Below, piece by piece: positions 9,888-30,604 of a DNA stretch of 64,000 nt. The position numbers and the translations under genes were made by a program. The DNA comes from Gammaproteobacteria bacterium. GTDB taxonomy: Bacteria > Pseudomonadota > Gammaproteobacteria > UBA4575. The notes below the pieces were generated by a model. That model had not been told where the DNA came from and made no database searches. It was given only the letters and a program-made list of their open reading frames with translations. Numbering within the stretch: the first letter of the stretch is position 1; every line of letters starts with the position of its first letter. The DNA lies in assembly GCA_022824965.1 (NCBI GenBank), contig JAJDYY010000002.1:58929-122928 (forward strand). The letters run 5' to 3'.

Positions 9888-9921
9888 CGAATTTCGCAAG
9901 ACGGCGGATACCCTCTTGGCC

Positions 9922-11793: not shown

Positions 11794-11812
11794 TCATTCC
11801 CTTGTTCAAAAA

Positions 11813-13923: not shown

Positions 13924-14931
13924 TCAAGACTCAGCGGCTTCGGAAATGGACGCTATGTCCTGCTGCAGGATAACGGCTCCAGAGTTTTTCCCCGACACTA
14001 TTCTAAATCGCAGGTCTTCATTCCCAGCAAACCGTGTTTGCAGGTCGCGCAACAGTGTATGTCCTTGTATTTCACTGCCAACAAAGGCAAATCCCAGTGG
14101 CCCCCATGAACTCTGCCCGACCCCTTCGATACCCAGAGACTCTATGTATTCAATAGCTTCACCGACGGAGCGACTAGTATAGCGCCCCCCCTGGGCCGAT
14201 GCGAAGTAATCACCAATGCATCTCTGGAGTCTGCTGACCCCTTGACTGAACATTTCCAGATTTTGCTCGGAAACTGCAGGCAGGATCTGCATCAGCACCA
14301 GATGACACAAATGCGCGGCAGATTCCGGTGAAAAAGCTGGCAAGGTCGAAAACAGCTCACTTTCATCGTTACCGTGCATCCCTTTTTGGGTCGAGTCAAT
14401 AATGAAAACCATGCGCCAGGCTGGCGGAAATACCAGCCGCGAGACCACGGGTGGAACCAGATCATGGGCACTCTTCCCAGCGTCCAGCAAGAACCCTCCC
14501 TGCTGGAACGCACCAATACCGACACCAGACCTTGCTCCTCGACCGAGAGTTTCGGCAATATCTGAAGGCGTGCAGTCGAGCGAATACAGCCTGGAAATTG
14601 CAGTGCCCACGGCCAGTGCCAGTTGTGTCCCAGAACCCAGCCCGGAATGTGCAGGGATTTGTTCCAGCACTTCAATTTGACACCCCCCGCTCAATTGCCT
14701 GGCTGCAAAAAACCTCTTTGCAACATCGTGCACACGGCCTGCAGGGTCACCCAGCACATCGATATGATCCTGGCGCCGGGCGATGATCCGCGTGGCAATG
14801 CCGTCAAGCGTTAATCCCAGACTCCCGAACCGCCTGCCCAGGCTGCCTTCAAGATCCAGAAAACCGAGGTGCAAGCGGGCCGGGGCTTCTACGTAGACGG
14901 GCAAGCTGTCCATATCCACAATTCTATTCAA
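13924..14931 (-). CDS. mptG: Beta-ribofuranosylaminobenzene 5'-phosphate synthase
   Basis: PARLHLG, H.GLGSGTQ, RGARSGVG, GQSSWGP GHMP-type motifs. Confidence 0.93.
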   Translation of the reverse strand: MNRIVDMDSLPVYVEAPARLHLGFLDLEGSLGRRFGSLGLTLDGIATRIIARRQDHIDVLGDPAGRVHDVAKRFFAARQLSGGCQIEVLEQIPAHSGLGSGTQLALAVGTAISRLYSLDCTPSDIAETLGRGARSGVGIGAFQQGGFLLDAGKSAHDLVPPVVSRLVFPPAWRMVFIIDSTQKGMHGNDESELFSTLPAFSPESAAHLCHLVLMQILPAVSEQNLEMFSQGVSRLQRCIGDYFASAQGGRYTSRSVGEAIEYIESLGIEGVGQSSWGPLGFAFVGSEIQGHTLLRDLQTRFAGNEDLRFRIVSGKNSGAVILQQDIASISEAAES

Positions 14932-14956: not shown

Positions 14957-15196
14957 TTACACCCATTTCAGCAGATAATAAATCAGCTGCCCTTCCGATG
15001 ACTTGGATGGCCCTACCACCTTGGCTGCGAATCTTTTCTTGTCAGGATCGGCGGCTGCCTGTGCCTGTTCGATATCACTTTTGATTTCCACACAATTTGC
15101 GGCGAATCTTTTACGGCTGCGCTTGGGCACATACACGACCGCGTATTGAATCTTGGATACGCCTCCTTCAGGATCCGGTGGCACCAAGCCTCTCAA
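14957..15196 (-). CDS. Small hypothetical protein
   Basis: 79-aa ORF filling the gap between cysS and mptG on the same strand; start uncertain. Confidence 0.65.
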   Translation of the reverse strand: MRGLVPPDPEGGVSKIQYAVVYVPKRSRKRFAANCVEIKSDIEQAQAAADPDKKRFAAKVVGPSKSSEGQLIYYLLKWV

Positions 15197-15269
15197 GGAA
15201 TCACCTCAATATGCCTTCGGATTGGATCCGATCGATCTCGCCACTCGTAATACTATTTGCCGTCACGGG

Positions 15270-16646
15270 TTAAACCTTCCTCCAGCTCGATGTCCCGTCC
15301 GGGCGATCCTGAATCTGGATACCCATTGCAGTAAGTTGTTCCCGGATCTCATCGGCCTGCTTGAAATTCCTCTCTTTTTTTGCACTGGATCTCAACTCCA
15401 CCAGCCTGAGAATCTCTGCTTCGTCGATCTCGGACGTCCCCCGAAACCATACCGCCGGATCCTGTTGCAAAATCCCGAGCATTCTGCCTGCCGCCAGCAA
15501 CTGTCCTTTCAGCGTCTCCCTTGCATTTTGTCCCGAGGCCGTCTTGACCTGTTTTGCCAGCCTGTGCAACTCGGAAATCGCAGCAGGAGTATTCAGGTCG
15601 TCCTCAAGGGCATCCGTGAACATGTCAGGCACTTCGAAAGCGGATGTGTCGATTTCAACATCCTGAAGATGATTCAAAACCTCATACAGGCGGTCCAGAT
15701 TCCTGCGTGACCGGTTCAGAATTTCGTCGCTCCAGTCCAGCGGGCTGCGGTAATGCGTGCCCAGAAGTGCAAACCGGATGGCTTCACCCGGTGCCTGCTC
15801 AAGCAGGTCTTGCACCAGCAGGACATTGCCCAGGGACTTGGACATTTTTTCACGATCGACATTGATAAAACCGTTGTGCATCCAGTACCGGCTGAGAAGC
15901 TTACCACCATGCACACAGGTGCTTTGCGCCCTTTCGTTCTCATGATGTGGAAAAACCAGGTCCTGACCACCGCCATGAATGTCGATGGTTTCTCCGAGGT
16001 GCTGCTCGATCATCGTCGAGCACTCGATATGCCAGCCCGGTCGCCCCGCACCCCATGGACTGTCCCATGCCGGCTGACCCGCATCGGATGGCTTCCACAG
16101 GACAAAATCCGTGTCGTCCCTTTTGAAGGGCGCAACATCCACACGTGCACCTGCAATCAATTCTCTCAGGTTGCGCCCGGAAAGTGCCCCGTACCCAGAA
16201 TAGGAAGGCACGTGGAACAACACATGGCCTTCGGCTTCATAGGCGTTTCCTGCTGCCACCAGGCGCTCGATCATGTCAATGATCTGCTCCATATGGTCGG
16301 TGACCCTGGGCTCAATGACAGGTGCAAGCACCCCGAGGTCTGTCATGTTCTGGTGGTAGGCCCGGGTATAGCGGGTGCTGATTTCCCCGATGGAAACCTT
16401 CTCCTTTGCGGCCGCTGCATTGATCTTGTCATCGACGTCCGTGATATTGCGCACATAGACGACCTGCTCGAATTTCTGCATGAGCAGGCGGTAGAGCACA
16501 TCGAAAACCACGGCGGGTCGGGCATTTCCGATGTGAGGAAAACTGTAGACCGTGGGACCACAGACATACAGAGTCACACGCCTGGGGTCTGCCGGAACAA
16601 ATTCCTCTTTTTTGCGCGAGGCTGTATTGAAAATTTGAAGGGTCAT
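15270..16646 (-). CDS. cysS: Cysteine-tRNA ligase
   Basis: YVCGPTVY, HIGN, GRPGWHIECS, KMSKS motifs. Confidence 0.97.
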   Translation of the reverse strand: MTLQIFNTASRKKEEFVPADPRRVTLYVCGPTVYSFPHIGNARPAVVFDVLYRLLMQKFEQVVYVRNITDVDDKINAAAAKEKVSIGEISTRYTRAYHQNMTDLGVLAPVIEPRVTDHMEQIIDMIERLVAAGNAYEAEGHVLFHVPSYSGYGALSGRNLRELIAGARVDVAPFKRDDTDFVLWKPSDAGQPAWDSPWGAGRPGWHIECSTMIEQHLGETIDIHGGGQDLVFPHHENERAQSTCVHGGKLLSRYWMHNGFINVDREKMSKSLGNVLLVQDLLEQAPGEAIRFALLGTHYRSPLDWSDEILNRSRRNLDRLYEVLNHLQDVEIDTSAFEVPDMFTDALEDDLNTPAAISELHRLAKQVKTASGQNARETLKGQLLAAGRMLGILQQDPAVWFRGTSEIDEAEILRLVELRSSAKKERNFKQADEIREQLTAMGIQIQDRPDGTSSWRKV

Positions 16647-16695
16647 GACGGTTCCGGGGAAATCTGCTGTACACCGATAACCGGCTATCGGTACC

Positions 16696-17082
16696 TCACT
16701 CCGGGCCACCCTGCCACATCATCTGGTAACCGATTTCATAGGTCTCCGTGGCATAGCCGCCCAAGGCCTCGAACTTTTCCCTGAAGACATCATCCGCGTG
16801 TGATTCCTCATGCTGCTCAAAGGATTCCCAGTAGGTGACAATGGCGACATGCTCACTGGTCTGTTCCTTCGAGGCAATGGAGCCTTCATCAGAGACAAAT
16901 CCTGCAAACTTGAATACCTGCCCGCCGAGAAAACCTCCCTTGTCGTCACCGTAGGTATTCTTGACCGTATTGCACATCTCTCCTACTGCAAGCTCTATAT
17001 CCTCTTCGGACACCCCTTTTTTCAGCTTGACAACGTTGTACATCATCACGCACCCGTACGGGACGCTCAGCGCATCAAACAT
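16696..17082 (-). CDS. 128-aa dimeric alpha/beta-barrel-like protein resembling the N-terminal domain of sulfur oxygenase reductase
   Basis: GAGGAG RBS before ATG; VGEMC, GFLGGQ, TYWESFEQHEESH, EIGY motifs; function inferred. Confidence 0.6.
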   Translation of the reverse strand: MFDALSVPYGCVMMYNVVKLKKGVSEEDIELAVGEMCNTVKNTYGDDKGGFLGGQVFKFAGFVSDEGSIASKEQTSEHVAIVTYWESFEQHEESHADDVFREKFEALGGYATETYEIGYQMMWQGGPE

Positions 17083-17234
17083 CGCAACTCCTCGGACTCG
17101 CAAGCCCCTTGTAGACACTGTGAATACATACTCTATTCGATTTTACGGACATTGGAAAACAGGTGCAGAAACCTCACCTGTGAGGCCTGTACCGGGTCTG
17201 CGGGCAGGCCAGGGGCTGTGGTCAGCCAGGCAGG

Positions 17235-18614
17235 TCAGCCGTTCGCGACCGCCAGCATCTCGGCCTGTCGGGTGAATTTCTCGCGTGGCTTGCCCTTGGG
17301 TTCTCCTGCGGCAACCTCGGCGGCATCAATTTTCTCCCACTGGATGAAATTGACATGGCGCACACCGTTGCGGCCCAGGATTTGATACAGACCCTCGCGA
17401 CCCGGTCTGTCTGCATCGAGTTGGCCGAGATCTGCCAGCAGGGACTCTACCGATTCCACCGCACAGGCACGGTTGGTGCCGATAATCCCGGAAGGTCCAC
17501 GCTTGATCCAGCCCGCCGTGTACAGTCCGGGCACCACGGCACCACCCTGTTCCGAGGTGATGCGCCCCGCATCGTTGGGAATGGTGCCCCAGCGGTCGTA
17601 AAAGGGGACTCCGGGAATGGGCACCCCGTTGTAGCCAATGCTGCGAAACAGGATCCCGCACGCGATCTCTGTTGTCTGTCCTGTGCCTTGCGCTGATTGC
17701 CCGAAGGGCTCTCCGGACAACTCATTGGCCTCGAATACAACCTTCTCCAGCCGTTCCCCGCCCTCCAGTCGCAGCGGGCTCTTTAAGAATGTTGCAATGC
17801 AGATTCGCGGCTTGCCCGTATCCTCGGAACCTGCGAACTGATGAAAAATCTCGACATTCTTCTTGTTGCCCCGGCCCGCCTTGGAATTGATTTCCTCTTC
17901 GCTTGCCGGGTTCAGTTCCAGTTCCACAGGATCAATATAGGGGCGGCAATTTTCAATCTCCAGGAATTCCTTGAGCTCCTTGGAGGCAAACTTTGCCTGT
18001 GCCGGCCCTCGCCGGCCCACCACGTAAATCGTTCGGACCCTGCTCTCTGCAAGTGCATCCAGGGCATGCTGCGCAATATCGGTATGCTTCAGTTCATCGA
18101 CGGACTTGGCCAGTATCCTGGCCACATCGGCTGCTACATTGCCCTGGCCGATCACGACGGCGGTCTCATGGGACAAGTCAAAAGTCCGGTCCCGGTAATC
18201 AGGATGCCCGTTGTACCAGCCAACAAATTCCGTGGCAGTGTGGCTTCCTGCCAGATCTTCTCCGGGTATGCCGAGCTGGCGATCCGTTTCCGCGCCACAG
18301 GTGTACATCACCGCATGATACGTCTGCTGCAGATCCTCCGCCGTGATGTCGACTCCGACCGTGACATTGCCGACAAAATTGAACTCGGGATTCTGGGCAA
18401 CTTTCTTGTAAACCTCGATGGCCTGCTTGAGCTTGGGATGATCAGGGGCAACCCCGTTGCGCACTAGGCCATAGGGGGCGGGAAGCCTTTCAATCAGGTC
18501 GATCTCAACATTCAGACCAGACTTGATCAGTGCTTCTGTGGCATAAAATCCGCTCGGACCGCTTCCTATAATGGCCACGCGAAGCGGGCTAGATTCATCG
18601 CCGAGACTGCTCAT
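17235..18614 (-). CDS. Ferredoxin-NADP+ reductase, FprA/adrenodoxin reductase type
   Basis: GSGPSG, GLVRNGVAPDH, WYNGHP, GQGNVAAD, GWIKRGPSG, PREK motifs. Confidence 0.92.
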   Translation of the reverse strand: MSSLGDESSPLRVAIIGSGPSGFYATEALIKSGLNVEIDLIERLPAPYGLVRNGVAPDHPKLKQAIEVYKKVAQNPEFNFVGNVTVGVDITAEDLQQTYHAVMYTCGAETDRQLGIPGEDLAGSHTATEFVGWYNGHPDYRDRTFDLSHETAVVIGQGNVAADVARILAKSVDELKHTDIAQHALDALAESRVRTIYVVGRRGPAQAKFASKELKEFLEIENCRPYIDPVELELNPASEEEINSKAGRGNKKNVEIFHQFAGSEDTGKPRICIATFLKSPLRLEGGERLEKVVFEANELSGEPFGQSAQGTGQTTEIACGILFRSIGYNGVPIPGVPFYDRWGTIPNDAGRITSEQGGAVVPGLYTAGWIKRGPSGIIGTNRACAVESVESLLADLGQLDADRPGREGLYQILGRNGVRHVNFIQWEKIDAAEVAAGEPKGKPREKFTRQAEMLAVANG

Positions 18615-18711
18615 GTGACGTTCCCGTACTCGATATCAATTTGGCTGCGAGCTTGTACAACAAGAAAGTGCAGAGCAGGACCGCCAGAATCATGCTTAAC
18701 CGTATCAGCAC

Positions 18712-19017
18712 CTAGAACCCTAGGTCTGCCTTGCGTTGCTCGGCTTCAGGCAAAGCTTCCATCGGTTCCTCAATTAATGGCAAGTCCGGTGCTTTTTCAG
18801 CATTGATCTCGATCCACTGCTCCTGTCCTTCAGGCAGGTCATCTTCCTCAAAGATTGCCTCTACGGGGCATTCCGGGATGCAGGCGCTGCAGTCAATGCA
18901 GACGTCCGGGTCGATATAAAGCATCTCATCATCATAATGAAAACAGGCCACCGGACACACGGCAACGCAGTCTGTAAAGCGACATCCTTTACAATTTTCT
19001 GTTACGACTGTAGTCAT
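18712..19017 (-). CDS. fdxA: FdxA-type (7Fe-like) ferredoxin
   Basis: CKGCRFTDCVAVCP and CIDCSACIPECP, acidic C-terminus as in Azotobacter FdI. Confidence 0.88.
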   Translation of the reverse strand: MTTVVTENCKGCRFTDCVAVCPVACFHYDDEMLYIDPDVCIDCSACIPECPVEAIFEEDDLPEGQEQWIEINAEKAPDLPLIEEPMEALPEAEQRKADLGF

Positions 19018-19091
19018 GAAATCATCTCCTCTACTGCAAACTGTACCAGACTATACAAACTGAAGGGGCTGCGGTGGCCGTAAACTGGCCC

Positions 19092-19913
19092 TCACTGGCC
19101 TGAAAAAAGCAGTATTTCTCCCCGATTGAGCTCCACCGCGTCTCCACTGTACCGGTCATACTTTCCATTGATATGCTTGTCCGTGATTTTTTCTCCAAAC
19201 CCATGTTCCTGCAACCTGATCAGATAGAGACGCAGGAACAATGGCTGATATCTACACGAATACTCGAAACTAGGCAATATCTGGGACTCTCCGAAACAGG
19301 CGACGGTGCCGCGCACCATGCCCGCACCCGTGCGCACACCCGTGTTGCCCATCACGACAATGGTCCCTGCTCGCATGCTTACCGCGGTAAAATCTCCAGC
19401 ATCCCCGCCGATCGCGATGAATCCACGGCGCATGGAGTTACCGACTTCATTCTTGACATTGCCATGGATGAAGATTTCACCACCCGTAATGCCCGTCGAC
19501 TGTCCCCTGAAGGCGCCGCCAACCATATGACCGGCATCACCAAACACTGTAATTCGCCCCCCGGACATCTCCGGCCCTACCCAGTCCGTAGCATCTCCCT
19601 TGACCAGGATCTCACCGCCGGACATCCCGATGCCTACATGCATGCCGACATTTCCCTCGATGATCACACGGCCTTCTGCCATGCCGGCACCAATCATTTT
19701 CACCCTGGAAAGGTCACCTTCGATGTGAATATCCGGAGTTCCCCTTCCCGTGACCTTGAAAAAATCACCGACCTTGGCCTTGACGTTTCCGTGCATCACC
19801 TGCAGGTGTTCGATTCCCAGTTCCGACAGCCCCGCAATCGAAGCAGGACTCAGGGTCTCCGCCTCCAATGGGACCTGTGGTTCCGTGTGCATATGCAGCA
19901 ATGTAGTACTCAT
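19092..19913 (-). CDS. fwdC: Formylmethanofuran dehydrogenase subunit C
   Basis: Repeated G..M..G.I.V.G beta-helix motifs; MRRG; operon context. Confidence 0.93.
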   Translation of the reverse strand: MSTTLLHMHTEPQVPLEAETLSPASIAGLSELGIEHLQVMHGNVKAKVGDFFKVTGRGTPDIHIEGDLSRVKMIGAGMAEGRVIIEGNVGMHVGIGMSGGEILVKGDATDWVGPEMSGGRITVFGDAGHMVGGAFRGQSTGITGGEIFIHGNVKNEVGNSMRRGFIAIGGDAGDFTAVSMRAGTIVVMGNTGVRTGAGMVRGTVACFGESQILPSFEYSCRYQPLFLRLYLIRLQEHGFGEKITDKHINGKYDRYSGDAVELNRGEILLFSGQ

Positions 19914-19950
19914 ACCAGACTACTTGTAATTTTATTTATAATCAATTGTT

Positions 19951-20847
19951 CTATTTAAGGATATCATGCAGGTGAAACTTGTATTTTCCAAGTTCTCCTC
20001 CGTAATTTCCCGCAGTAATGATCAGGGTTCCTCTTGACGCTGCCGCGTGGATGCCACGGCGCATGGCCTGCTTGACTACCTCCTCGTTCAAGCCGTCCAC
20101 GACAATCTCGTACCCGGCCGCCACGTTTTCCGGAAGCGTTTCCTGGCCTGAAATCGAACGCAAGGTGGGGCAGTACCTGTCATTGGTCGAGGCGATCATG
20201 GACTTGTAACGCGAACCGACCTTGCTGCCAGACCCCACGACTCCCTGGGGAAACGGCAGGAATACCCCCGCCACCTCACGCATGGCATTGCTCGCCGCGG
20301 TCGCTGCACGCAGTGCAATCCGCTGGCTTGTCCCCAGAATAATCAGGTTTCCGCCGCCCACGGCAGGCTGGATTCCAAAGGACTCCTCGACGATAAACTC
20401 ACCTTCCATGACCGGGATTCTCCACATTCGGCGGCCATCTATGAGTTTGCTGATCTGGTATCCATCTCCGAAAAAGCGCAGCTTCCCACCTACGGAAACC
20501 GTCTTCTCGGATTCCAGCCCATTGTATGCAGCCGTTGTGGGACAGGTCATGACACACTGGCCGATCCGGTCAATCAACTGACCTGCAATTGCCTTGCTGC
20601 TCATGGTGAACAGCAACACGCTGACGCCAGGGCGTCGGTCTGGAGTAGCCTCCGGAGGGACTTCACACTCGACCGCTGCTTCTAGCTTGCAGCGGATAAC
20701 CGAGGTGGCGAACCCGGTCATGGATGCCGCCGCGGCGCGCGCCCACTGCTTGGTGTCCGCCGTAATGACGACACGCGCACCCCACATCCCGAAAGCCTCC
20801 GCAAAGGTATCCGTGATTTCCGTTTTCTTGATGCGCATGACTTTCAT
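19951..20847 (-). CDS. ftr: Formylmethanofuran:H4MPT formyltransferase
   Basis: DTFAEAF, TGFATSVI, TPD.RPG, GQCVMTCPT, SGSKVGS, AGNYGG motifs. Confidence 0.96.
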   Translation of the reverse strand: MKVMRIKKTEITDTFAEAFGMWGARVVITADTKQWARAAAASMTGFATSVIRCKLEAAVECEVPPEATPDRRPGVSVLLFTMSSKAIAGQLIDRIGQCVMTCPTTAAYNGLESEKTVSVGGKLRFFGDGYQISKLIDGRRMWRIPVMEGEFIVEESFGIQPAVGGGNLIILGTSQRIALRAATAASNAMREVAGVFLPFPQGVVGSGSKVGSRYKSMIASTNDRYCPTLRSISGQETLPENVAAGYEIVVDGLNEEVVKQAMRRGIHAAASRGTLIITAGNYGGELGKYKFHLHDILK

Positions 20848-22490
20848 GACTTCGGATGGGTCGGGACCTCCTCGTGGTCATGAAGATAATCTTCACTGAT
20901 TGCATAGTTACCGAATTTGACCGAGTAGTAATCTTCAAAGAAAGGTTCAATTTCAGCTGCAATATCTTCGTTGTATCCCGGCTTGGAATGCAGAATCTTT
21001 CCTTTGTGGTCAGTCGCAAATTCGTGGTCCTTGATAACCATGGTGCCGTCCTTGATTACATACCGGGGGGCATTGAACATCTGCTCCCGGTCCTCGTCTT
21101 CCGTATAGATCGTGACATCCGCATCAGCGCCTATACCCAGATGCCCCTTGTTTTTCAGGCCCAAAGCCCTCGCCGGACCCGCTCTGGTAATGATCGCGAT
21201 CTCATTCAGCGTGTACTCGCGATCCAGTTCCGGAAGTACTGTCTGGGCGACTGCCTTCTGATTGACATGCTGTAACGCCTCTTTCCTGTAGGCACTGTCC
21301 ATCAATAGCTTGATCAATTTGGGATAGTTCATGAAGGAACCACCGTTGGGGTGGTCGGTAGACAGCAGGACACGCCACGGGTCTTTCGACATCAGAAACA
21401 ACTCCAGGCCCATGGCCCACTGCAAGGTGTGGGTGTAGATGCTCTCCTGATAACTGAAAGGAATGATGCCGCAACCACTTTCACACTCCGTGTCTGCGTT
21501 CACCCACTTGTCAAACTTGACGTTGCGCAGCATCCAGGCAAGCGGAGCGTCTGCTGTCATTGCCGTAGCCTTGCCAAACATGACCTGGCCCACGTCCGCC
21601 GTGATGTTTTCATGATCGTTGATGTAATTGATGATTTCCTGGGCACCGGATACCGGATTCTTGTTCAACTCCCCGCCAAAACTGTGGAACTGTACATGGG
21701 CTATGTGCGCACGCCGGCCCTGTGCTGCTTTCATGGTATCGAGGGTCGTGCTGATGTTGCCACTGTGTCCCAGGTTGTTGCAGTGTATGTGGGGTGGATG
21801 AGGCAGCCCCAGTTCATGCGCAGCCTCGATGAAGCTTTCCATCACGAACGCTGGCGTGATGTCATAGTGATCAATCTGCTCGTTTACATCCGTAATGTTG
21901 GCATTCTTTCGGCCTTTCCAGAGTTCATCGCTGCCTGTGTTCACCAGCTTGACCGTGTAGGCATGCACTGAATTCACCCACCACGCAATGGCTTCCTTGA
22001 ATTCCTTTTTCCGCCCTTCCTTCAGCAGTTTGTACAAAAATGCATTGTTGCCGAGCAGTACATAGAAACCCTTGTCTACCACCGGGGTGTCATCGAGCTC
22101 TTCGAGTACATGCCTTGCGGTAATGGGTGGAACTGCCGCTTCCATCGCGGTGGTGTAGCCCATGGTGGCGTAGCGGTAGCCTGTGGCAAAGGTCGAGGGT
22201 ACGATGCCACCGGTCCCGGAACGGGTCACCGCGGTTTTCGGGTGAACATCCAGGCGATGATCTTCTGGCATCAGCTTTCGTGCGAGGTTGACCTTGGGTC
22301 CGGCAATGTGGCAATGGATGTCAATTGCACCGGGCATCACGACCATGCCGCGTGCATCGATCCTGGAAGCGGATTTGGAAACGGATTCCACGATCTTTCC
22401 ATCTCTCACGCACAGGTCCTGGATACTGCCATCGACATTGTTGGCAGGATCGTATACACGCCCGTTCGAGATTTTTAATTCAGATGGCAT
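20844..22490 (-). CDS. fwdA: Formylmethanofuran dehydrogenase subunit A (amidohydrolase)
   Basis: DIHCHIAG, KLVN, HIHCNNLG, HVQFH, TDHPNGG, TRAGPA metal-binding motifs. Confidence 0.96.
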   Translation of the reverse strand: MPSELKISNGRVYDPANNVDGSIQDLCVRDGKIVESVSKSASRIDARGMVVMPGAIDIHCHIAGPKVNLARKLMPEDHRLDVHPKTAVTRSGTGGIVPSTFATGYRYATMGYTTAMEAAVPPITARHVLEELDDTPVVDKGFYVLLGNNAFLYKLLKEGRKKEFKEAIAWWVNSVHAYTVKLVNTGSDELWKGRKNANITDVNEQIDHYDITPAFVMESFIEAAHELGLPHPPHIHCNNLGHSGNISTTLDTMKAAQGRRAHIAHVQFHSFGGELNKNPVSGAQEIINYINDHENITADVGQVMFGKATAMTADAPLAWMLRNVKFDKWVNADTECESGCGIIPFSYQESIYTHTLQWAMGLELFLMSKDPWRVLLSTDHPNGGSFMNYPKLIKLLMDSAYRKEALQHVNQKAVAQTVLPELDREYTLNEIAIITRAGPARALGLKNKGHLGIGADADVTIYTEDEDREQMFNAPRYVIKDGTMVIKDHEFATDHKGKILHSKPGYNEDIAAEIEPFFEDYYSVKFGNYAISEDYLHDHEEVPTHPKS

Positions 22491-22554
22491 GTTCTGATTA
22501 TCCTTTGAACAAAACTATTGCTATCCGGCAAGACGGTTGTTGGAAGATGTTTTG

Positions 22555-23916
22555 TTAAGCCGCAACCCTGGCCTTGCTGCCTGAAAGGATTTTTTTCACG
22601 CGCTTGCGTATTCCCTCCAGGATTTCCTGGTCTGTCGGGAAGGGAGAATCAAACGCTGGTCGCAGGGATATTGGGACATCATCCATCCTGTACACCGTTC
22701 CGCCGGTATTGATCCCGTAGGTCGCCACTGCAAAACGCACCCTGGAAAGTCGGGTGGTATGGGTCTCTTTCACGTCCATGGAAATGACCGGTATTTTTTC
22801 CAGATGCTCAATGGCTTTCTTGGGGAAGTTGGATGCCGGGTCCGAGGCAACGATCATCGCAGCGTCAGCTTCACCCCTGGCAAGCACATCGCTGGTCGTA
22901 AATTCACCCGGGTTGAACCTCGGGTATCCCCGGTTGAAGTTGACGCCAAATGGATATCCCGTCTGCCATGCAACGACGTTGTCTGCACCGGTTACGTTGC
23001 CATGACCTCGAACGGGCTTGGCCACGAAGTGGGTAAATTCATTGAGATCGGATGCCAGGGAATAGACTGCACCGGAATTGAAGTGCCTTCCTCGGGTCAT
23101 GGTCAGGCCCATACCCATGAACAGCACCCCAAACTGGCAGTTCTTCATGCGCTGTACCAGGTCATCCAGTGTTTCCCGGGGCACACCGGTCTGCTCTTCA
23201 ATGTCCTCGCTGATTTTCCTTCCCTTGACGAGAGCACGCAACGCCCAGAGCAACTCAAAGTCCTTGCCGGGTTTGACCCGCACGAAGATGTCCGCCACGG
23301 GAGTACTGGGTGTCTTGCGCACATCGATCAGAACTACGGTGCGATCCTTTTTGCCGTTCGGGATGAACATGCCTTTCGGGGTCACAGCATAACGCGTGAA
23401 GTGACGGGGGTGGGATTCAGCCGGGTTGCCGCCCCAGTAAATCACCAGGTCGGCGCGGTTTTTGATCTCCCCCAGAGTGGCTGTACTTTCACCTACACCC
23501 TGAAAAGCCATGCCCGATGGACCGTGGCATACCGAAGTCGTAGTATCGATATTGCCGTTGATAGTATCCATGATATCCACTGCCACGCGCTGGGCTTCAC
23601 ACGGGCAGTCACTGAGCCCGTAGGTGATGGGAAATTTTGCGTCCACAAGAATCCGGGCGGCCTCGTCCAGGCCCTCATCCAAACTGGCTTCCTTGCCATC
23701 AATCAGCACTACCGGGCGCTCTTCCAGCGTGTGCTCGTAAAACCAGGCCCGTCCAAGCACACATGCCCTCTTGGCCTTGGTGATACGGTGTGCGTCCAGG
23801 TCGACAGTTAGCTCCATGTCATCACAGACACAACCGCAAAACGTGCAGGTCGCATCTTTTACAATCCTGATATTCTTGCTTTCCTTGGGCTTGGCTTTGG
23901 CTGCTGCTTCTGGCAT
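22555..23916 (-). CDS. fwdB: Formylmethanofuran dehydrogenase subunit B with intact Fe-S and Mo/W site motifs
   Basis: CTFCGCVCDD...RAC, SVCHGP, GEIKNRAD, HPRH, RGHGNVTG, WQTGYP, YRMD. Confidence 0.95.
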   Translation of the reverse strand: MPEAAAKAKPKESKNIRIVKDATCTFCGCVCDDMELTVDLDAHRITKAKRACVLGRAWFYEHTLEERPVVLIDGKEASLDEGLDEAARILVDAKFPITYGLSDCPCEAQRVAVDIMDTINGNIDTTTSVCHGPSGMAFQGVGESTATLGEIKNRADLVIYWGGNPAESHPRHFTRYAVTPKGMFIPNGKKDRTVVLIDVRKTPSTPVADIFVRVKPGKDFELLWALRALVKGRKISEDIEEQTGVPRETLDDLVQRMKNCQFGVLFMGMGLTMTRGRHFNSGAVYSLASDLNEFTHFVAKPVRGHGNVTGADNVVAWQTGYPFGVNFNRGYPRFNPGEFTTSDVLARGEADAAMIVASDPASNFPKKAIEHLEKIPVISMDVKETHTTRLSRVRFAVATYGINTGGTVYRMDDVPISLRPAFDSPFPTDQEILEGIRKRVKKILSGSKARVAA

Positions 23917-23953
23917 GGAGTATCCTCAACTAACGTGAATCGGTGGCCTTGGA

Positions 23954-24298
23954 TCAACCTTTCACTTTGGTCACTTCGACTTGCATATGCTTTGACATCG
24001 GCATTCCAGAGGCTGCTGTATCTGAGCCCATCAACTGGCTTGAAGAAGGTCCATAGGGGATGAAAATCATTCCCGAGGGCAGGTCTTCTTCTTTTTTGCC
24101 TGTACACGTGACCACGGCCTGTCCCACGTCTGATTTTAGCCGAATCTTATCGCCGTTACTAAGCTTCAGCCGACGCATGTCCTGCTCGTTCAGTTCCGCT
24201 GTGGTTGTTACAGCCAGATACTCATCCTTGAGCTTGCCCTTGTTCAGCGATGTGCCCTGTTTTTGTGAGCGTCCGGGTACTAGTATCATCGTTTCCAC
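23954..24298 (-). CDS. fwdD: Formylmethanofuran dehydrogenase subunit D (molybdopterin dinucleotide-binding domain)
   Basis: GRS.KQG...GK and FIPYGP...T..SGMP..K motifs; first gene of the fwd run. Confidence 0.88.
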   Translation of the reverse strand: METMILVPGRSQKQGTSLNKGKLKDEYLAVTTTAELNEQDMRRLKLSNGDKIRLKSDVGQAVVTCTGKKEEDLPSGMIFIPYGPSSSQLMGSDTAASGMPMSKHMQVEVTKVKG

Positions 24299-24560
24299 TG
24301 TGCATGTATCCTCGAATGCTGAGTGAAGACTGATTTCAGTAGAAGAGAAAATGGAGAAGCGGTTCAGTTCATCGACCCTAAATCCGCCCGTTGCCCGCCA
24401 GACCTTCGATCCGGCGGTTGTGTGCTAACTCTGCAACTGTCGACTGCCTCCATATTCTACTGCATTTCCCGGCAAGATACCCTCTAAAAGTTGCTGACTG
24501 CACCTTCGGCAGCCTTCCCCGGGAGACCAGAGTCGGCCAGGTCAACGGCTTGGCTGCAGG

Positions 24561-25784
24561 CTACCTCAGATCGATCCTAAGTGAAATTGTACCGAAATAG
24601 CCAAAAGCATCCGAGTACGCGATACGTGCCGCGGAGTGAGGCTGTCCGCTGGCCAGACTCTCACCGTGTCTTGCATAGCGCATTACCGGAGCCCGGGACA
24701 GGTATTCGCCACCGACAGCCAGCCGCAAGACCAGGTTCTCAAACAAGTTCACGCTCAGGGAGGTCTCCAAGCTCAGCGTTGCAGCCAGTTCCGAATCATC
24801 GTCCTCCCAGTCCGTCAACTCATCCAGAACAGGTTCAGCAGAAGACAGCAGTGTTCTTTGTGAACCCTCGTACTCGGAATCGAGATAAAAGAGTCCCAGT
24901 TTGCCGTCGACCATCAGTTGCCAGCGCTGCCTGAACGGGACCTCGATGCGGCCACCGAAGTCCGCACCGTAATATGAGGCCTTCAAGTCTTCTTCCAGGG
25001 TCAGGCTGTTGACCCCCGGATCCCGGTTGGACTCATAGGCGAAGGTTTCGGATTCCTGCTCCAGTCTCCTGAAGCTGGGTCCGGCATATAGCCTGGACCG
25101 GACCTGCCCTGTTTGTGAGAACAATATTCCGGTTATAAGACCGAGGCCATGGTAATCGACCTTGCGTTCAGTCCTGACCCGGATCGGATCACCCCAGGCG
25201 AAATTCGGGGCTCCGAAAGGGATTTCGCCACCGTCAATCCTGCCGATCCAGCCAACGGAGCGGACATGCGGGTCGTTCTTGATAAGCGAAACGAGGTGCT
25301 GCTCGGTCTCGGCCGTAATGCATGCTCCGAGTTCAGTCCCCTGGGGGCAGTACTGATTCTCGAACTGGATCCGCACCTCGGTCCAGGGTGCGGCATCCTC
25401 ACTGTAATCGTTGGTGTGTGTCGAGCTGTACGAGATGAGAAAACCGCTGAACTCGGTGAACAGGTCTTTCCCGAGGGCATGATAGTTGCGCCCGACTGTC
25501 AATTGAGCCCGTGACCCGGACCGGAATTCAGCATCATAGTGCTCGAGAAAACCGACAACCTCTTCGCTTCCGTTCGTCCTGACAAAAGGGCTGGATTCAG
25601 GCAAGTCAAGGAAATGCACGCCCCCATCTGCTTGCAGGTAGAAGGCATCTCCAGTCGGGTCATTGGGTGGTACGGCATGGGCCTGCAGACAAAGCAGGAC
25701 AAGAAGAAAAACAGCCACACACCGGAGGCCGGGGAACGACAGTGTTTTTCTCAAGTACAGCATCATCATGACAAACTTCGACAA
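24561..25784 (-). CDS. Exported hypothetical protein, probable outer-membrane beta-barrel
   Basis: Signal peptide ending AHA; alternating hydrophobic strands, C-terminal YFGTISLRIDLR; start uncertain. Confidence 0.6.
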   Translation of the reverse strand: MSKFVMMMLYLRKTLSFPGLRCVAVFLLVLLCLQAHAVPPNDPTGDAFYLQADGGVHFLDLPESSPFVRTNGSEEVVGFLEHYDAEFRSGSRAQLTVGRNYHALGKDLFTEFSGFLISYSSTHTNDYSEDAAPWTEVRIQFENQYCPQGTELGACITAETEQHLVSLIKNDPHVRSVGWIGRIDGGEIPFGAPNFAWGDPIRVRTERKVDYHGLGLITGILFSQTGQVRSRLYAGPSFRRLEQESETFAYESNRDPGVNSLTLEEDLKASYYGADFGGRIEVPFRQRWQLMVDGKLGLFYLDSEYEGSQRTLLSSAEPVLDELTDWEDDDSELAATLSLETSLSVNLFENLVLRLAVGGEYLSRAPVMRYARHGESLASGQPHSAARIAYSDAFGYFGTISLRIDLR

Positions 25785-26004
25785 TCCCGCAGCGTTGACA
25801 CAAACTCATCGCCGGATAGTATCCAGTGCATTGCAGCGACTTTCAGGCAGTTTCATCGCCACGCCGACAGCCATTGAATATGCCACATACCGTCTGCAGA
25901 TACACTATTGCGCCGATAAGCTGGTATAATCCTACGCACAAATAACAGGCTTATGCTACAAGCAGACCACTGCTGAAAATAACACTAATCAGGAGAAGCG
26001 AATC

Positions 26005-26355: not shown

Positions 26356-26985
26356 TCAGTCTGAAAGTAACTCGCGTTCCTTGTCCCCGCGGGGATTCAG
26401 ACCCAGGGACGCTTTCAGATATTCCAGAAAGGACGAAGCCCCGGAGTGTGTCCCATCGGCTTCCACCACGGGCGGGTTGCCGGACATCACCTTCGTGATG
26501 AACCTGACCACTTCCGCTGAATCCCACTCACGCTCCCCTACTGCCCTGTAGATAATTCTGCCCTCCGGACTGACGAGGAAGGTCGTAGGCAGGCCCAGCA
26601 CACCCCAGTTCGAAAGTTCCATATTCAGGTCAACAAGAATGGTGAATTCCACCGGCACCTGGTTCAAGAATTTTTTTATACTGTCCAGGCTCGGACCGAC
26701 ATGCACACCAACGACCTCAAGGCCGGCGTGATTCAGTTCCTTGTGCAGATTATCCAGGGCCGGCATCTCTTTGCGACAAGGCGCGCACCACGTGGCCCAA
26801 AAGTTCAGCAACACGAACTTGTCCCGGTAGTCGCCTAGAGCCACGCTCGTTCCATCAAGGGTCTCCAGCGTAAAATCCTCTGCTATCGGTTGGGCCGAGA
26901 CAGGCCCCATGGGCGCCCTGGCATGCGCTGTACACAAACAAAAATACAGTAGTCCACACAGACACCACCCGATCGTTCTCATCAT
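26356..26985 (-). CDS. TlpA-family thiol:disulfide reductase
   Basis: LNFWATWCAPCRKEMP, LPTTF motifs; signal peptide. Confidence 0.9.
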   Translation of the reverse strand: MMRTIGWCLCGLLYFCLCTAHARAPMGPVSAQPIAEDFTLETLDGTSVALGDYRDKFVLLNFWATWCAPCRKEMPALDNLHKELNHAGLEVVGVHVGPSLDSIKKFLNQVPVEFTILVDLNMELSNWGVLGLPTTFLVSPEGRIIYRAVGEREWDSAEVVRFITKVMSGNPPVVEADGTHSGASSFLEYLKASLGLNPRGDKERELLSD

Positions 26986-27025: not shown

Positions 27026-28375
27026 TCAGTATTTCAACTTGTTCTTGTGTGTCCAGTCGGGATCATCCTTGCTGACGTCACCGATCGGTGCGGCAAAGGC
27101 ATCGGTTACCAGTATAGGGACATTGCCGCCCGTCAGTGATCGCAGGAAAGCAAGCAAATCCTCAATCTCGGAATCCGTCAGGTTCAGTGGCCGAATCAGG
27201 GGGCTGAGCAACTCGTTGGGGATTCCGCCCCGATTGTAGAAATCCAGGACCTCACGCAGCGTGTGAAACGAACCATTGTGCATGTAAGGTGCCGTCAGAG
27301 CGACATTCCTCAGGGATGGGGTGCGAAACTTCCAGCGATCGTTCGGATCCTCGGTCACCTCGTACAGGCCCAGGTCGTTCTTCTCGAATCTGGAAACCGA
27401 ATTGATCACGCTGTTTTCAAGCTCAGTGAAAATCCCGGGCGCCAGTTGCACCCTCGTGGTTCCGGAATCGCGGCCCATGGACACTTCGTACCCCAAACCG
27501 GTGTTGTGCAACCGATCATCCGTGAACAGGGCATGCTCTTTCTGGACCAGATGACAGCTGCTGCATGCCCCCTTGCCGGTAAACAGCCTGAAACCACGTT
27601 TGACCTGATCACTGACTGCATTTTTTTCCTTGCCGTAGTACCAGCGGTCGAACGGTGAGTCGGCTGCATTGAGAGTCCGCTGATAACTGGCCAGGGCCAT
27701 ACCGATCGTTTCCATGGTCGGGCCGCGGCCATGGAATACCTCTTCAAACAAACCATCATATTCATCGATTGCATTGATTTTATTGATCACGTAGCCGATC
27801 GACGGATTGGCCATTTCGTTGCGTGCGAGAAATGGTGCCCACACCTGCTGCTCCAGAGTGGATTCACGCCCGTCATGGAAGATCTTGCCGAAGTAGGCCA
27901 CATTGTAAATTGTCGGTGTATTGCGCTTGCCGGAACGGCCTTCGACACCGACCGCTGTCTCAAGCTCATTGTTGGTAAATCCCTGCTCCGGGATATGACA
28001 CATGGCGCAGGAGAACGTGTTGTTGATCGAAAGACGACGGTCAAAAAACAACTTTCTTCCCAGCAGAATCTTTTTCGCCGTAAGTGGATTATCTGCAGGT
28101 ACAGGCACCGGTGGAAGTCCCAGCGGCGGCTGCTCGGCGAATTTGATGAGTTCGGCCTCCTTTCCAATGCGGTTCAGCAAATCCAGCGTGCTGGTGGTGT
28201 AATCGGCAGATTCATAGCCGTGTTTGACATCTCCCGGTCCGAATATCGCCCGATTCTGCAACTCGGGTGCATCTGCAGAGCCCCGAGACGCAGTAGCTGA
28301 AAAGAGCGAAAGTGCAGCAGCGAAAACGACCAGGGCGTTGATGACCAACACGGCCTTGTTCATGCGATTCATCAC
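27026..28375 (-). CDS. MauG-like di-haem cytochrome c peroxidase family (probable MtoX maturation)
   Basis: CAMCH and CSSCH haem motifs, RNTPT, FRTPSLRNV..TAPYMHNG; context with mtoX. Confidence 0.88.
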   Translation of the reverse strand: MMNRMNKAVLVINALVVFAAALSLFSATASRGSADAPELQNRAIFGPGDVKHGYESADYTTSTLDLLNRIGKEAELIKFAEQPPLGLPPVPVPADNPLTAKKILLGRKLFFDRRLSINNTFSCAMCHIPEQGFTNNELETAVGVEGRSGKRNTPTIYNVAYFGKIFHDGRESTLEQQVWAPFLARNEMANPSIGYVINKINAIDEYDGLFEEVFHGRGPTMETIGMALASYQRTLNAADSPFDRWYYGKEKNAVSDQVKRGFRLFTGKGACSSCHLVQKEHALFTDDRLHNTGLGYEVSMGRDSGTTRVQLAPGIFTELENSVINSVSRFEKNDLGLYEVTEDPNDRWKFRTPSLRNVALTAPYMHNGSFHTLREVLDFYNRGGIPNELLSPLIRPLNLTDSEIEDLLAFLRSLTGGNVPILVTDAFAAPIGDVSKDDPDWTHKNKLKY

Positions 28376-29121
28376 GAACCTACTTGTGCAGTCAACACCC
28401 CGTCTTCAATAAGAAGCGTTTTTATATCAATCGCAATCAATTGATCGTGCAAGAATGAAACGCTGTATTCCTGTCGAATGTTGCGGGATTTGTCAATCAG
28501 AAAAGCGCGCAAGACATGCGCCATGGTCCCGGTAAAATTCCCGTCCTCGTCGAATTCCTGAATGACCATCTGCCCGTAGCTACGGAGGATGGGTTCCAGC
28601 ACCTCTTCGGATGAAGTCGTCAAAAACAGCCACTCAGGGTCCCCTTCACTGAATGTCCCGCCATACAGTTTCATCGCCTCAGGCGTGTCCTGCCTGGGAT
28701 CAAAACTGACACTGATCAGGCGAATTTTATCGGCCAGTTCGGGCTCAGCCTTGAACCGCTCCTTGAGTTTGTAGAACACGGCCGTTGCCAAAGGACAGCC
28801 GTTGATTTCCGAGCAATTGGTATAGATAAAGGTAAGGAGAACCAGCTTGTCGCCCAGAAGATCGCTCAACTCCCACTGTTTCCCGTCCGTATCCAAGACG
28901 GTGCCGCTGCCGGCAGCACTAACAACCGGTAAGGGGTAAGTCCCTGGTTCGGGGGGATCGTAAGGGAGTTCCGGTTTCCATCCATCTGCTATCACCTGCA
29001 CATCGACCTGGGCCGCATGTGACCAGGGCATCGGGGCCTCCTCATCGGCCGAACGGTCACAGCCCAACAATGAAACAAGCAGTATCAGGCAAACCGCTGG
29101 ATATCTAAAACCATTCACCAT
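28372..29121 (-). CDS. SCO1/SenC-family copper chaperone lipoprotein
   Basis: LLGC lipobox, YTNCSEINGCP, SVSFDP..DTP, conserved His in MAH. Confidence 0.88.
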   Translation of the reverse strand: MVNGFRYPAVCLILLVSLLGCDRSADEEAPMPWSHAAQVDVQVIADGWKPELPYDPPEPGTYPLPVVSAAGSGTVLDTDGKQWELSDLLGDKLVLLTFIYTNCSEINGCPLATAVFYKLKERFKAEPELADKIRLISVSFDPRQDTPEAMKLYGGTFSEGDPEWLFLTTSSEEVLEPILRSYGQMVIQEFDEDGNFTGTMAHVLRAFLIDKSRNIRQEYSVSFLHDQLIAIDIKTLLIEDGVLTAQVGS

Positions 29122-29144
29122 CTGCAAAATTGTAGCCCATAAAC

Positions 29145-29221: not shown

Positions 29222-30604
29222 TTACTCTACCCGTTGAGACAGCATTGTGCCTTTTGAGTTCGGCTTTTGTCCATACAGTGAATAGGCACCGAATCGCATC
29301 TGATGCGGTCGGCCCAGATTCTCTGCATAGAAATCAATCGCGAACTTTTGCACAAGCTCTTTACCGTTCCACTCGAACAACTTGAAGAATTGCTCGTCCT
29401 GGTCACCGGTCTTGTCCCAGTTCCCCAGCAGGGATGACGTGAAGTACATGCGCTTTCCATCCCAGCTTTGCGAAGTCATGTTCACTTGTGAACCGATCAC
29501 ATGCTCGTAGGTCTGCTTGGGATTGAACGGATCAGAGATGTCAAAGTGTCTGGTTTTGCCATCCATGAAGGTTTGTACCCAAAGACCCTTGTCATCTGCA
29601 GTGATGGAAATGTCCACTGGCAACGGTACCTGAGAAGGATCACCGATAGCGCCAACAGATTGGGCATGCCACTCACCGGCATCGTCTTCGTGAATCAGCC
29701 AGATCTGCGAAGTCAGTGCGGTTGTGGTGAAGCAGTAGTTATTCTGGGAACCCCATGCACAGCGGATTTCCAAAGGTGAACCCGGGACTTCAAACACTTT
29801 CTTGGGCTTGCGGGTATGCAGGTCCCAGACAACCACGGTGTTGCCGAATCGCTTCATGGCCTCTGCGTCTCCAAGCATTTTGCCGAAGTCCATCATGTAG
29901 TTGGACCAGCCTGTGAAAGAGGAGGTAACCATGACGTTACGGCGTGGCAATACGCGGACATCATAACCGTATCCGTCTGCGATATTCCCGACTTTTACAG
30001 CACCACGCATGTCTTCATCCGTCGGCATCCAGTGCGCCGCTACAAACTCACCTTCGTTGGTGAACTCTGCAAGGCCTGTTCTGCCGCCATGATCCTTGTT
30101 GTTGGACAGTGCGCTGACCATGATTCTGCCCGGAAGAGCGTACATGGTGTGCGGACCAACCATACCACCGGTTTTCTCTACAAAATCGGTGATCACTTTA
30201 TGCAGGGAAGGCTTGCTTGGATTGGAATGGACATCAAAGATAAAGATCTTGTTGGTGTCCAAGCCACCTGCAAACAGATAACGGCGGTCATCTGTTAAAC
30301 CGGAATGATGTGCCTCATTACGACCACCTACAGAAAGTACATTGACGACTTTCCCGTAGTGTGGAGACTCTGGGTTCACCGAGACGGTGACCAGCTTGTC
30401 TTGACCATCACCAACACCTTCCTTACCTAGCGTCCAGATATACACATAATCTTCCTGACCAACAATCTTGGCCATATAGGGAGACATACAAGTCTCATCC
30501 GCAATGGCAGCAGACTGAAAGCCAACTACAGATGCCAGCAGGACACACAGGGAAGCGAGGCTGCCTTGTATCCACCTAGCGTGTAACTTTGACATTTTTT
30601 TCAT
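29222..30604 (-). CDS. mtoX: Methanethiol oxidase (selenium-binding protein family), periplasmic
   Basis: Signal peptide then DETCMSPY, NEAHH, GPHT, GYGYD, SSFTGW, SQSWDGKR.YFTSSLL.NWD; followed by SCO and MauG-like genes. Confidence 0.93.
   Translation of the reverse strand: MKKMSKLHARWIQGSLASLCVLLASVVGFQSAAIADETCMSPYMAKIVGQEDYVYIWTLGKEGVGDGQDKLVTVSVNPESPHYGKVVNVLSVGGRNEAHHSGLTDDRRYLFAGGLDTNKIFIFDVHSNPSKPSLHKVITDFVEKTGGMVGPHTMYALPGRIMVSALSNNKDHGGRTGLAEFTNEGEFVAAHWMPTDEDMRGAVKVGNIADGYGYDVRVLPRRNVMVTSSFTGWSNYMMDFGKMLGDAEAMKRFGNTVVVWDLHTRKPKKVFEVPGSPLEIRCAWGSQNNYCFTTTALTSQIWLIHEDDAGEWHAQSVGAIGDPSQVPLPVDISITADDKGLWVQTFMDGKTRHFDISDPFNPKQTYEHVIGSQVNMTSQSWDGKRMYFTSSLLGNWDKTGDQDEQFFKLFEWNGKELVQKFAIDFYAENLGRPHQMRFGAYSLYGQKPNSKGTMLSQRVE

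Follow-up and report, generated by a model that had tools for sequence, protein, structure and literature searches.

A predicted gammaproteobacterial formylmethanofuran dehydrogenase with an embedded formyltransferase and a candidate ferredoxin/FprA outlet to NADP+

In textbook bacterial methylotrophy, the tetrahydromethanopterin (H4MPT) pathway ends with the Fhc complex, and formate is released. What, then, is an operon for an archaeal-style formylmethanofuran dehydrogenase (FMD) doing in a proteobacterium, and where would its electrons go? The question is raised by a stretch of 64,000 nt, here called the window, from a Gammaproteobacteria bacterium of the UBA4575 lineage (GCA_022824965.1, contig JAJDYY010000002.1, positions 58,929-122,928 of the forward strand; position numbers are those of the window, 1 being its first letter). 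The host is a small-genome, marine, sponge-associated organism, and its genome of 1.735 Mb in 8 contigs is 97.6% complete with 0% contamination. Five open reading frames (ORFs), all on the minus strand at 19092-24298, encode FwdD, FwdB, FwdA, the formyltransferase Ftr and FwdC, and the family models agree with the operon fwdD-B-A-ftr-C that an earlier note on this DNA had described. The conserved unit is larger than those five genes: it comprises seven, fwdD-fwdB-fwdA-ftr-fwdC-fdxA-fprA. The account towards which we lean is that this module encodes a bacterial, Ftr-containing, tungsten- or molybdenum-pterin FMD that works in the oxidative direction and has a 7Fe ferredoxin (FdxA), an FprA-type flavoprotein and NADP+ as its electron outlet.

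The redox character of the module can be read from FwdB, which scores 507.8 bits against TIGR03129, over the curated cut-off of 327.8, and whose translation holds CTFCGCVCDD, RACVLG, SVCHGP and RGHGNV. In a HMMER alignment with FwdB of Methanothermobacter wolfeii (5t5i_B; E 7e-115, about 50% identity), C24, C27, C31 and C52 align with the archaeal [4Fe-4S] cluster cysteines, three of them opposite CPFCGTLC and the fourth opposite NAC, while C130-H131 and R303 correspond to Cys118-His119 and Arg288. The codon of Cys130 lies, by arithmetic from the gene start at 23916, at 23527-23529. The earlier note had picked out the same cysteines, Cys-His pair and arginine from the letters, and the alignment bears it out at every position. 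According to Hemmann et al. (2019; PMC6926001), Cys118, His119 and Arg288 are catalytic in FwdB and gone from Methylorubrum FhcB. The FMD of Ca. Ethanoperedens (8RJA) is matched at E 9.6e-113, and FhcB of M. extorquens (6s6y_B) at E 1e-13 (53.8 bits); the latter alignment begins only at query residue 72, and FhcB is therefore without the Fe-S domain. The fwdD gene starts with GTG (an in-frame ATG follows 9 nt further in), and its product matches PF01568 at 40.7 bits. The best NCBIfam model for it is that of FwdD (NF042908; 80 bits, under the cut-off of 175), and its five PDB matches are all FwdD subunits (best 2ki8_A, 4e-17). Judged by these residues and homologies, FwdB and FwdD very probably form a redox-active dehydrogenase.

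Conservation among relatives points the same way. A scan of genome contigs gave 373 stretches encoding relatives, and the best 80 (73-98% identity), all metagenome-assembled genomes (MAGs), were used; their titles read Gammaproteobacteria, Ca. Porisulfidus, Ca. Oxydemutator(aceae), 'Chromatiales bacterium USCg_Taylor' and sponge bins, with a few odd labels. The Cys cluster, SVCHGP and RGHGN are kept in all 80 loci, down to 73% identity, so the motif match of the window protein is not due to chance. The fwdD gene precedes fwdB in 79 of the 80, and the order D-B-A-ftr-C is collinear in 68/68 loci with the complete set of five. The class was also sampled evenly and searched, for FwdD at E <= 1e-5 (400 genomes) and for TIGR03129 at E <= 1e-20 (401 genomes), the counts including four genomes marked unpublished (G039, G141, G296 and G308). 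FwdD occurs in 22 of the 400 genomes, 21 times as a strong match and once as a weak one inside a 918-aa frame. TIGR03129 is matched in 56/401 with a bimodal spread of scores: 20 genomes at 494-520 bits, G361 at 425 bits (in two pieces) and the rest at 77-409. The 21 high-scoring genomes are the same 21 that have a strong FwdD, and the full ligand set is present in all 19 high-scorer loci fetched. In contrast, ten FhcB-type loci from the same sample, which are 23-30% identical to the window FwdB, uniformly carry Ala, Gly or Ser in place of the Cys and Gly or Ser in place of the Arg, have lost the His and lack fwdD; the four N-terminal cysteines are still present in five of them. An operon of the FhcB type is also seen in genome G381 (L134, G381:C33:24000-43999); its B subunit keeps the four N-terminal cysteines and has lost the catalytic Cys, His and Arg. 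There, an fprA-like gene 61% identical to that of the window lies before fhcBADC, at about 11173-12534, with no ferredoxin gene between. Going by this arrangement, redox chemistry may persist in some Fhc complexes that have an Fe-S cluster.

The earlier note had proposed a phylogeny of FwdB and FhcB with ligand states. Representatives of 50%-identity clusters were searched exhaustively, with 668 proteins matching at E <= 1e-30, and a FastTree was built from 138 rows, made up of 123 representatives with a length of 395 aa or more, the window protein, seven gammaproteobacterial Fwd-type and seven gammaproteobacterial FhcB-type proteins. It is midpoint-rooted, with an arbitrary root and rows without names; the donor lineage is outside its reach. 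The gammaproteobacterial Fwd-type rows form a clade (support 100) within a 28-row group in which 20 have the full ligand set, and the FhcB-type rows sit on a distant long branch. The nearest outgroup (P0124, 52% identity) is a FwdD-FwdB fusion whose close relatives bear names such as Pirellulales and Planctomycetota. The window FwdB thus lies outside the proteobacterial FhcB lineage and falls in a distinct one, most of it ligand-intact, which it shares with other bacteria and which, judging by solved structures, is close to archaeal FwdB. Across the 123 representatives, 15 carry the full Cys-His-Arg set and most keep the four N-terminal cysteines, figures that are qualitative, coming from an automatic alignment of very divergent proteins. 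The Planctomycetota-like relatives have FwdD joined to the N-terminal end of FwdB in one protein of 570-606 aa. A scan of metagenome contigs with one such fusion (P0276) gave two short contigs, too short to show fdx or fprA, and the metagenome contigs L142 and L143 differ in gene order, with a divergent ftr in one and fwdC directly after the fused gene in the other.

The other subunits give the module a hybrid character. FwdA (TIGR03121, 705 bits) is closer to archaeal 5t5i_A (6e-141) than to 6s6y_A of M. extorquens (3e-104), and its binuclear-site ligands all have a counterpart in archaeal FwdA, namely HxH, a Lys (in YTVKLVN), two His (in HIHCNN and HVQFHS) and an Asp (in STDHPNGG). By these alignments subunits A and B are clearly nearer to the archaeal proteins than to Fhc. 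Ftr (TIGR03119/NF002554, 415-424 bits, 424 with NF002554) is equidistant from the archaeal and Fhc types in a PDB search (1ftr_A, 5.5e-93; 6s6y_D, 2.3e-87). For FwdC (TIGR03122, 249 bits), archaeal alignments end near residue 219 and only FhcC of M. extorquens reaches residue 268. An AlphaFold2 model of FwdC (34 sequences, pLDDT 94.8) has helices at 225-239 and 245-249 in this C-terminal stretch, and in a Foldseek search with it the TM-score (0.90) and rmsd (2.0 A) are best for 6s6y_C, the E-value for 5t5i_C. In FhcC, this stretch is the formyltransferase-bearing helix-loop-helix, where archaeal FwdC has a beta-hairpin (Hemmann et al., 2019; PMC6926001). The modelled C-terminus of FwdC appears Fhc-like, and docking of Ftr on it is a prediction only; this is supportive but not decisive. 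The order B-A-ftr-C, with ftr inside the operon, is that of the Fhc type, as in fhcBADC of M. extorquens (Hemmann et al., 2019; PMC6926001). The gene order and the FwdC C-terminus together support the hybrid, Ftr-containing complex that the earlier note had put forward.

Cofactor supply and the fate of formate were followed through the genome. Molybdopterin biosynthesis, whose absence the earlier note had named as grounds for giving up the idea, is represented by MoaA (384 bits, cut-off 284), MobA (250 bits, cut-off 152), MoaC, MoaE and MoeA. A three-gene TupABC-like ABC transporter, for which TupA and TupB are the best models, is present too, and ModA was not found in the genome. Taken with the tree, every computational check put forward in the earlier note thus turned out in favour of its reading. 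The FwdB/FhcB family has a single member in this 97.6% complete genome, and a second Fhc or Fwd set was not found there. The only other MopB proteins in the genome are NuoG (629 bits) and one of 764 aa, which was considered as a formate dehydrogenase and set aside, with some uncertainty: its best solved relative is acetylene hydratase (3e-53), and near the aligned position its Cys is followed by Ile instead of His. This DMSO-reductase-family protein is encoded outside the window (G000:C2:245647-249175; L019:1648-5110), adjoins an FNR-like flavin reductase with two ferredoxin-type motifs and the cbb3 oxidase subunit CcoP, and is likely a second pterin enzyme in a very small genome. Neither a recognisable formate dehydrogenase, nor a metal-free one over cut-off, nor a formate-tetrahydrofolate ligase (FTHFS) was found in the genome; free formate would have no obvious consumer there. 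Outside the window (G000:C1:424244-425161; L144:5245-6162), the genome encodes another Ftr, a stand-alone paralogue with 39% identity that scores 312 bits against NF002554, over cut-off. It stands within a serine-cycle-like cluster together with 5-formyl-tetrahydrofolate cyclo-ligase, an aminotransferase, a malyl-CoA-lyase-like protein, malate-CoA ligase, hydroxypyruvate/glyoxylate reductase and phosphoenolpyruvate carboxylase.

Many relatives may have both systems. A second, lower-scoring TIGR03129 copy is found in 14 of the 21 Fwd-type genomes, and in G150 (same family, 2.6 Mb) this copy is a canonical fhcBADC beside mtoX, just before fwdDBA-ftr-fwdC-fdx-fprA. Its fhcBADC, mtoX cluster and fwd module stand side by side (L132/L133, G150:C1:648000-680000), with fhcBADC on the far side of the mtoX cluster. 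Since the window genome lacks the fhcBADC that G150 keeps beside its fwd module, the fwd module apparently suffices.

As for the electrons, 59 of the 60 related loci that extend at least 2 kb beyond fwdC have a ferredoxin gene and then a flavoprotein gene behind it, in the same orientation, and the median gaps fwdC-fdx and fdx-fprA are 77 and 64 nt. The outer flanks vary from locus to locus, holding the mtoX cluster, RFAP-mtdB-mch or neither. The window ferredoxin has the Cys pattern CxxCxxxxCxxxCP...CxxCxxCxxxCP of 7Fe FdxA proteins, which we take, from Azotobacter FdI, to hold one [3Fe-4S] and one [4Fe-4S] cluster. It scores 116 bits against NF045490 (FdxA), under the cut-off of 135, and a second fdxA-like gene, 49% identical to it, is located elsewhere in the genome. 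The flavoprotein, the single copy of its type in the genome, matches M. tuberculosis FprA (1lqt_A) at 1e-111 over query residues 10-457 and chain residues 3-454, and adrenodoxin reductase (1cjc_A) at 2e-100; a GltD-like identity, the first impression from family models, gave way to this full-length match. In Mycobacterium tuberculosis, FdxA is a partner of FprA. Complex prediction for FwdB and the ferredoxin gave scores of 0.21 and 0.30 against a mark of 0.32, which speaks neither for nor against binding. Judged by gene order and homology, it is an even call whether FdxA and FprA are the physiological outlet of FwdBD. The potential of NADP+ is about 0.2 V more positive than that of CO2/formyl-methanofuran, and NADPH is far too weak a reductant for this couple. 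Because the formyl-methanofuran/CO2 couple lies at about -0.53 V (PMC11656701), electron flow from formyl-methanofuran to NADP+ would be strongly downhill, and its NADPH-driven reversal is implausible for that reason. The suggestion in the earlier note that the complex might be reversible is hence unlikely if the ferredoxin/FprA pair is the outlet.

The surroundings of the module are listed in Table 1. Genes of the H4MPT pathway lie on one side of it and methanethiol oxidase (MtoX) on the other, and the fwd module therefore stands within an H4MPT formaldehyde-oxidation island beside a formaldehyde-producing enzyme. Further along the same strand beyond fprA there are also cysS and MfnD-like and MfnF-like genes. 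The mtoX cluster, which is upstream of fwdD in 26/80 related loci, is the probable source of formaldehyde for the pathway, and this points to methanethiol, from dimethylsulfoniopropionate or dimethyl sulfide, as a one-carbon (C1) source in these sponge-associated bacteria. An ORF of 407 aa between the mtoX cluster and fwdD has a tblastn match in nine of the 80 related loci, the closest ones. A promoter and terminator scan of 15000-26000 gave no more sites than shuffled sequences did.

Table 1. Features of the window around the fwd module
Feature	Position	Strand	Description
fae	8402-8929	-	H4MPT pathway gene (TIGR03126)
CitG-like	9039-10001	-	PF01874
mptN-like ligase	9922-10836	-	NF040720
mch	10840-11793	-	TIGR03120
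ATP-grasp	11813-12979	-	PF02655
mtdB-like dehydrogenase	12936-13838	-	PF09176 Mpt_N
beta-RFAP synthase	13924-14931	-	TIGR00144
fprA-like	17235-18614	-	459 aa; adrenodoxin-reductase-type NADPH:ferredoxin oxidoreductase
fdxA-like	18712-19017	-	101 aa; 7Fe ferredoxin, fwd-linked paralogue
fwdC	19092-19913	-	beta-helix scaffold subunit; predicted Fhc-like C-terminal helix-loop-helix; TIGR03122
ftr/fhcD	19951-20847	-	formylmethanofuran:H4MPT formyltransferase inside the operon; PF01913 and PF02741
fwdA	20844-22490	-	amidohydrolase subunit (formyl-methanofuran hydrolysis/formation); binuclear metal site ligands; TIGR03121
fwdB	22555-23916	-	453 aa; catalytic metal-pterin subunit with N-terminal [4Fe-4S] domain; TIGR03129
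fwdD	23954-24298	-	114 aa; small molybdopterin-dinucleotide-binding 'cap' subunit (domain IV); PF01568
407-aa ORF	24561-25784	-	no Pfam or NCBIfam match
TlpA-like	26356-26985	-	thiol-disulfide; mtoX cluster
MauG/MbnH-like	27026-28375	-	di-haem; mtoX cluster
SCO1-like	28372-29127	-	mtoX cluster
mtoX	29222-30604	-	methanethiol oxidase; NF052453, 755 bits

What is shown above comprises the genes with their motifs and homologies, the genes for cofactor synthesis and the conserved gene order; from these we infer every step of the following route. Formaldehyde, for instance from the nearby methanethiol oxidase, would be converted to formyl-H4MPT via Fae, MtdB and Mch. Ftr, docked on the Fhc-like C-terminus of FwdC, would hand the formyl group to methanofuran or methylofuran, and FwdA would hydrolyse the resulting formyl-methanofuran or formyl-methylofuran. 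The formate would be kept within the complex and oxidised to CO2 at the metal-pterin site of FwdB/FwdD, from which electrons would pass via the [4Fe-4S] cluster of FwdB to the 7Fe ferredoxin, the FprA-type flavoprotein and finally NADP+.

A number of observations count against this route. Its main weakness is that the FdxA/FprA link comes from gene order among related, non-independent MAGs, and one locus (L079) lacks the pair. In G381 the fprA-like gene immediately precedes an operon of FhcB type whose B subunit has no catalytic Cys, and FprA may therefore not be the acceptor from the pterin site. No FwdF or FwdG polyferredoxin is present in the operon or its flanks, no genome-wide search having been aimed at them. 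The TupA- and TupB-like proteins fall short of their NCBIfam cut-offs (219 bits where 400 are required, and 175 where 320 are), so that the metal may be tungsten or molybdenum; the pterin genes could also serve the 764-aa MopB protein instead of FwdBD. By hand cross-tabulation, FTHFS is present in 2/7 genomes with Fwd only, 12/14 with Fwd and a second copy, 25/35 with Fhc only and 44/344 with neither, small numbers from kin genomes among which the second copy is confirmed as FhcB-type in G150 only. The direction of this pattern fits, but it is weak, as two of the seven Fwd-only genomes have FTHFS, and G150, with Fhc and without FTHFS, is a counter-example. The stretch is found nearly identical in sponge metagenomes, though runs with a small share of it carry no information on habitat, and a sponge metatranscriptome library holds contigs of a 93-97% identical relative over 22460-24152 (fwdD-fwdB) and 18003-19200 (fprA-fdx-fwdC), which are longer than the contigs of a larger DNA run from the same sample. 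For transcription of the module this is a weak hint, the cover being partial, from that relative and without a silent control stretch. Finally, bacterial enzymes of this type are known from genes alone.

Several of these points would fit a redox-active FwdBD whose neighbouring ferredoxin and FprA serve another task, such as balancing NADPH and ferredoxin in general, repair of clusters or activation; the electrons would then go to another ferredoxin or to the respiratory chain. The G381 arrangement and the locus without the pair both favour such a division of labour, and, the loci coming from related genomes, the conserved order is partly a matter of descent. Against it, the pair keeps its place after fwdC in all but one locus while the outer flanks change, the fwd-linked ferredoxin is a paralogue separate from the second fdxA-like gene, and the intergenic gaps are short. 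We regard this alternative as unlikely, though it deserves to be taken seriously. A second alternative, that the complex, like archaeal Fwd in methanogens, runs reductively and forms formyl-methanofuran from CO2, with the C1 units heading for the serine cycle, is very unlikely. The linked redox partners point to NADP(H), some 0.2 V too positive for this purpose, no bifurcating Hdr-type or hydrogenase module is adjacent, and fae, mtdB, mch and the formaldehyde-producing methanethiol oxidase surround the module. What speaks for it is a serine-cycle cluster with a second Ftr in a genome in which no formate-tetrahydrofolate ligase was found, so that the route of C1 entry is not obvious, and the reversibility of the archaeal homologues (PMC11656701). 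The least probable alternative is a functionally ordinary Fhc, in which FwdB and FwdD would be scaffolds without metal-pterin and formate would be released: the only characterised bacterial complex behaves in this way (PMC6926001) and the B-A-ftr-C order is Fhc-like, as the FwdC C-terminus appears to be, but the Fe-S, Cys-His and Arg positions are kept in 80/80 and 19/19 relatives and lost in true FhcB of the same class, fwdD is retained, mobA and the Tup-like genes are kept in a streamlined genome, and no formate dehydrogenase or FTHFS was found to handle free formate.

The oxidative, NADP+-linked dehydrogenase that we favour can be set beside four known systems. It shares with the archaeal FwdABCDFG of M. 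wolfeii (5T5I) the subunits FwdB, FwdD, FwdA and FwdC and the ligands of FwdB and FwdA. Unlike that complex, it has no FwdF or FwdG in its operon, an embedded ftr, an FwdC C-terminus predicted to be Fhc-like, an aerobic-type gammaproteobacterial host, a likely oxidative direction, and a 7Fe ferredoxin and FprA as neighbours. With FhcABCD of Methylorubrum extorquens (6S6Y) it has in common the B-A-ftr(D)-C order, an Ftr within the operon and a place in H4MPT-linked formaldehyde oxidation; going by the model, the helix-loop-helix of subunit C may be a further common trait. On the other hand, Fhc releases formate, and FhcB is without the Fe-S domain, the Cys, His and Arg and the FwdD partner, all of which are present here. 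The oxidative use and a non-standard acceptor module that pulls the reaction are reminiscent of the F420-reducing FMD of Ca. Ethanoperedens (8RJA; PMC11656701), which is archaeal and reduces F420 via a fused reductase, whereas the candidate described here would reduce NADP+ via a separate ferredoxin and FprA. The FprA/7Fe FdxA pair of Mycobacterium tuberculosis (1LQT) is comparable in the full-length flavoprotein match and the 7Fe Cys pattern; here, the pair is tied genomically to an FMD operon, and the proposed direction is from ferredoxin to NADP+.

An operon of identical order has been published, fwdDBA-ftr-fwdC in single-cell genomes of Hakuba Actinobacteria (Merino et al., 2020; PMC7325909). 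It belongs to another phylum and an anaerobic Wood-Ljungdahl context, methanopterin synthesis genes were not found there, and the portion of the report drawn on here makes no mention of fdxA-fprA partners (PMC7325909). The same authors reported the N-terminal [4Fe-4S] domain and Cys118 in the actinobacterial FwdB and suggested an active Fwd-like complex (PMC7325909). As to distribution, Chistoserdova (2016; PMC5020050) recorded fwdD in Archaea, Synergistetes, Firmicutes and NC10 and its absence from Planctomycetes and Proteobacteria, an absence which the present data contradict for both phyla. Wells et al. (2023) counted 149 bacterial matches to the FwdB family and inferred transfer from Archaea. 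Fhc was described as the only known bacterial methylofuran enzyme (Hemmann et al., 2019; PMC6926001), and it is the one bacterial FMD mentioned in the passages of a 2024 review consulted here (PMC11656701). The novelty that the earlier note saw in lineage and wiring holds in part. Such genes are annotated in many MAGs, the clade is widespread in gammaproteobacterial MAGs (21/400), related forms occur in Planctomycetota, and the operon type and its order are in print for Actinobacteria. A literature search, which was not a full survey, found no paper that places such an operon in Gammaproteobacteria or links it to FdxA/FprA; nor did the literature searched cover the clade in Proteobacteria, the way it coexists with Fhc or replaces it, or the NADP-linked wiring.

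The known electron modules of FMD are the polyferredoxin, the Hdr-Fdh supercomplex and the F420 reductase (PMC11656701). A bolder and more tentative proposal is that the module represents a fourth kind of FMD electron coupling: an oxygen-compatible tungsten- or molybdenum-pterin FMD with docked Ftr and no free formate, which would send electrons to NADP+ via FdxA/FprA in aerobic Gammaproteobacteria of the sea and of soil, sponge symbionts and an upland-soil-cluster MAG among them, take the place of Fhc and formate dehydrogenase in streamlined genomes, and be a living intermediate between Fwd and Fhc. For that path Hemmann et al. (2019; PMC6926001) proposed that the dehydrogenase was lost first. 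The module fits the proposed intermediate in having already recruited the formyltransferase while not yet having lost the dehydrogenase.

A seven-gene expression construct would allow a direct test of the hypothesis, and G150, with both systems side by side, offers a natural pair for comparing the Fhc and Fwd modules. If the hypothesis is true, the ferredoxin/FprA/NADP+ outlet would be a further type of FMD electron module, and an FMD from aerobes would be of interest for CO2/formate catalysis. The carbon and electron bookkeeping of C1 oxidation would change to CO2 and NADPH instead of formate, and this would affect sponge symbionts, degraders of organosulfur compounds such as methanethiol, and an uncultured upland-soil-cluster gammaproteobacterium represented by a MAG.

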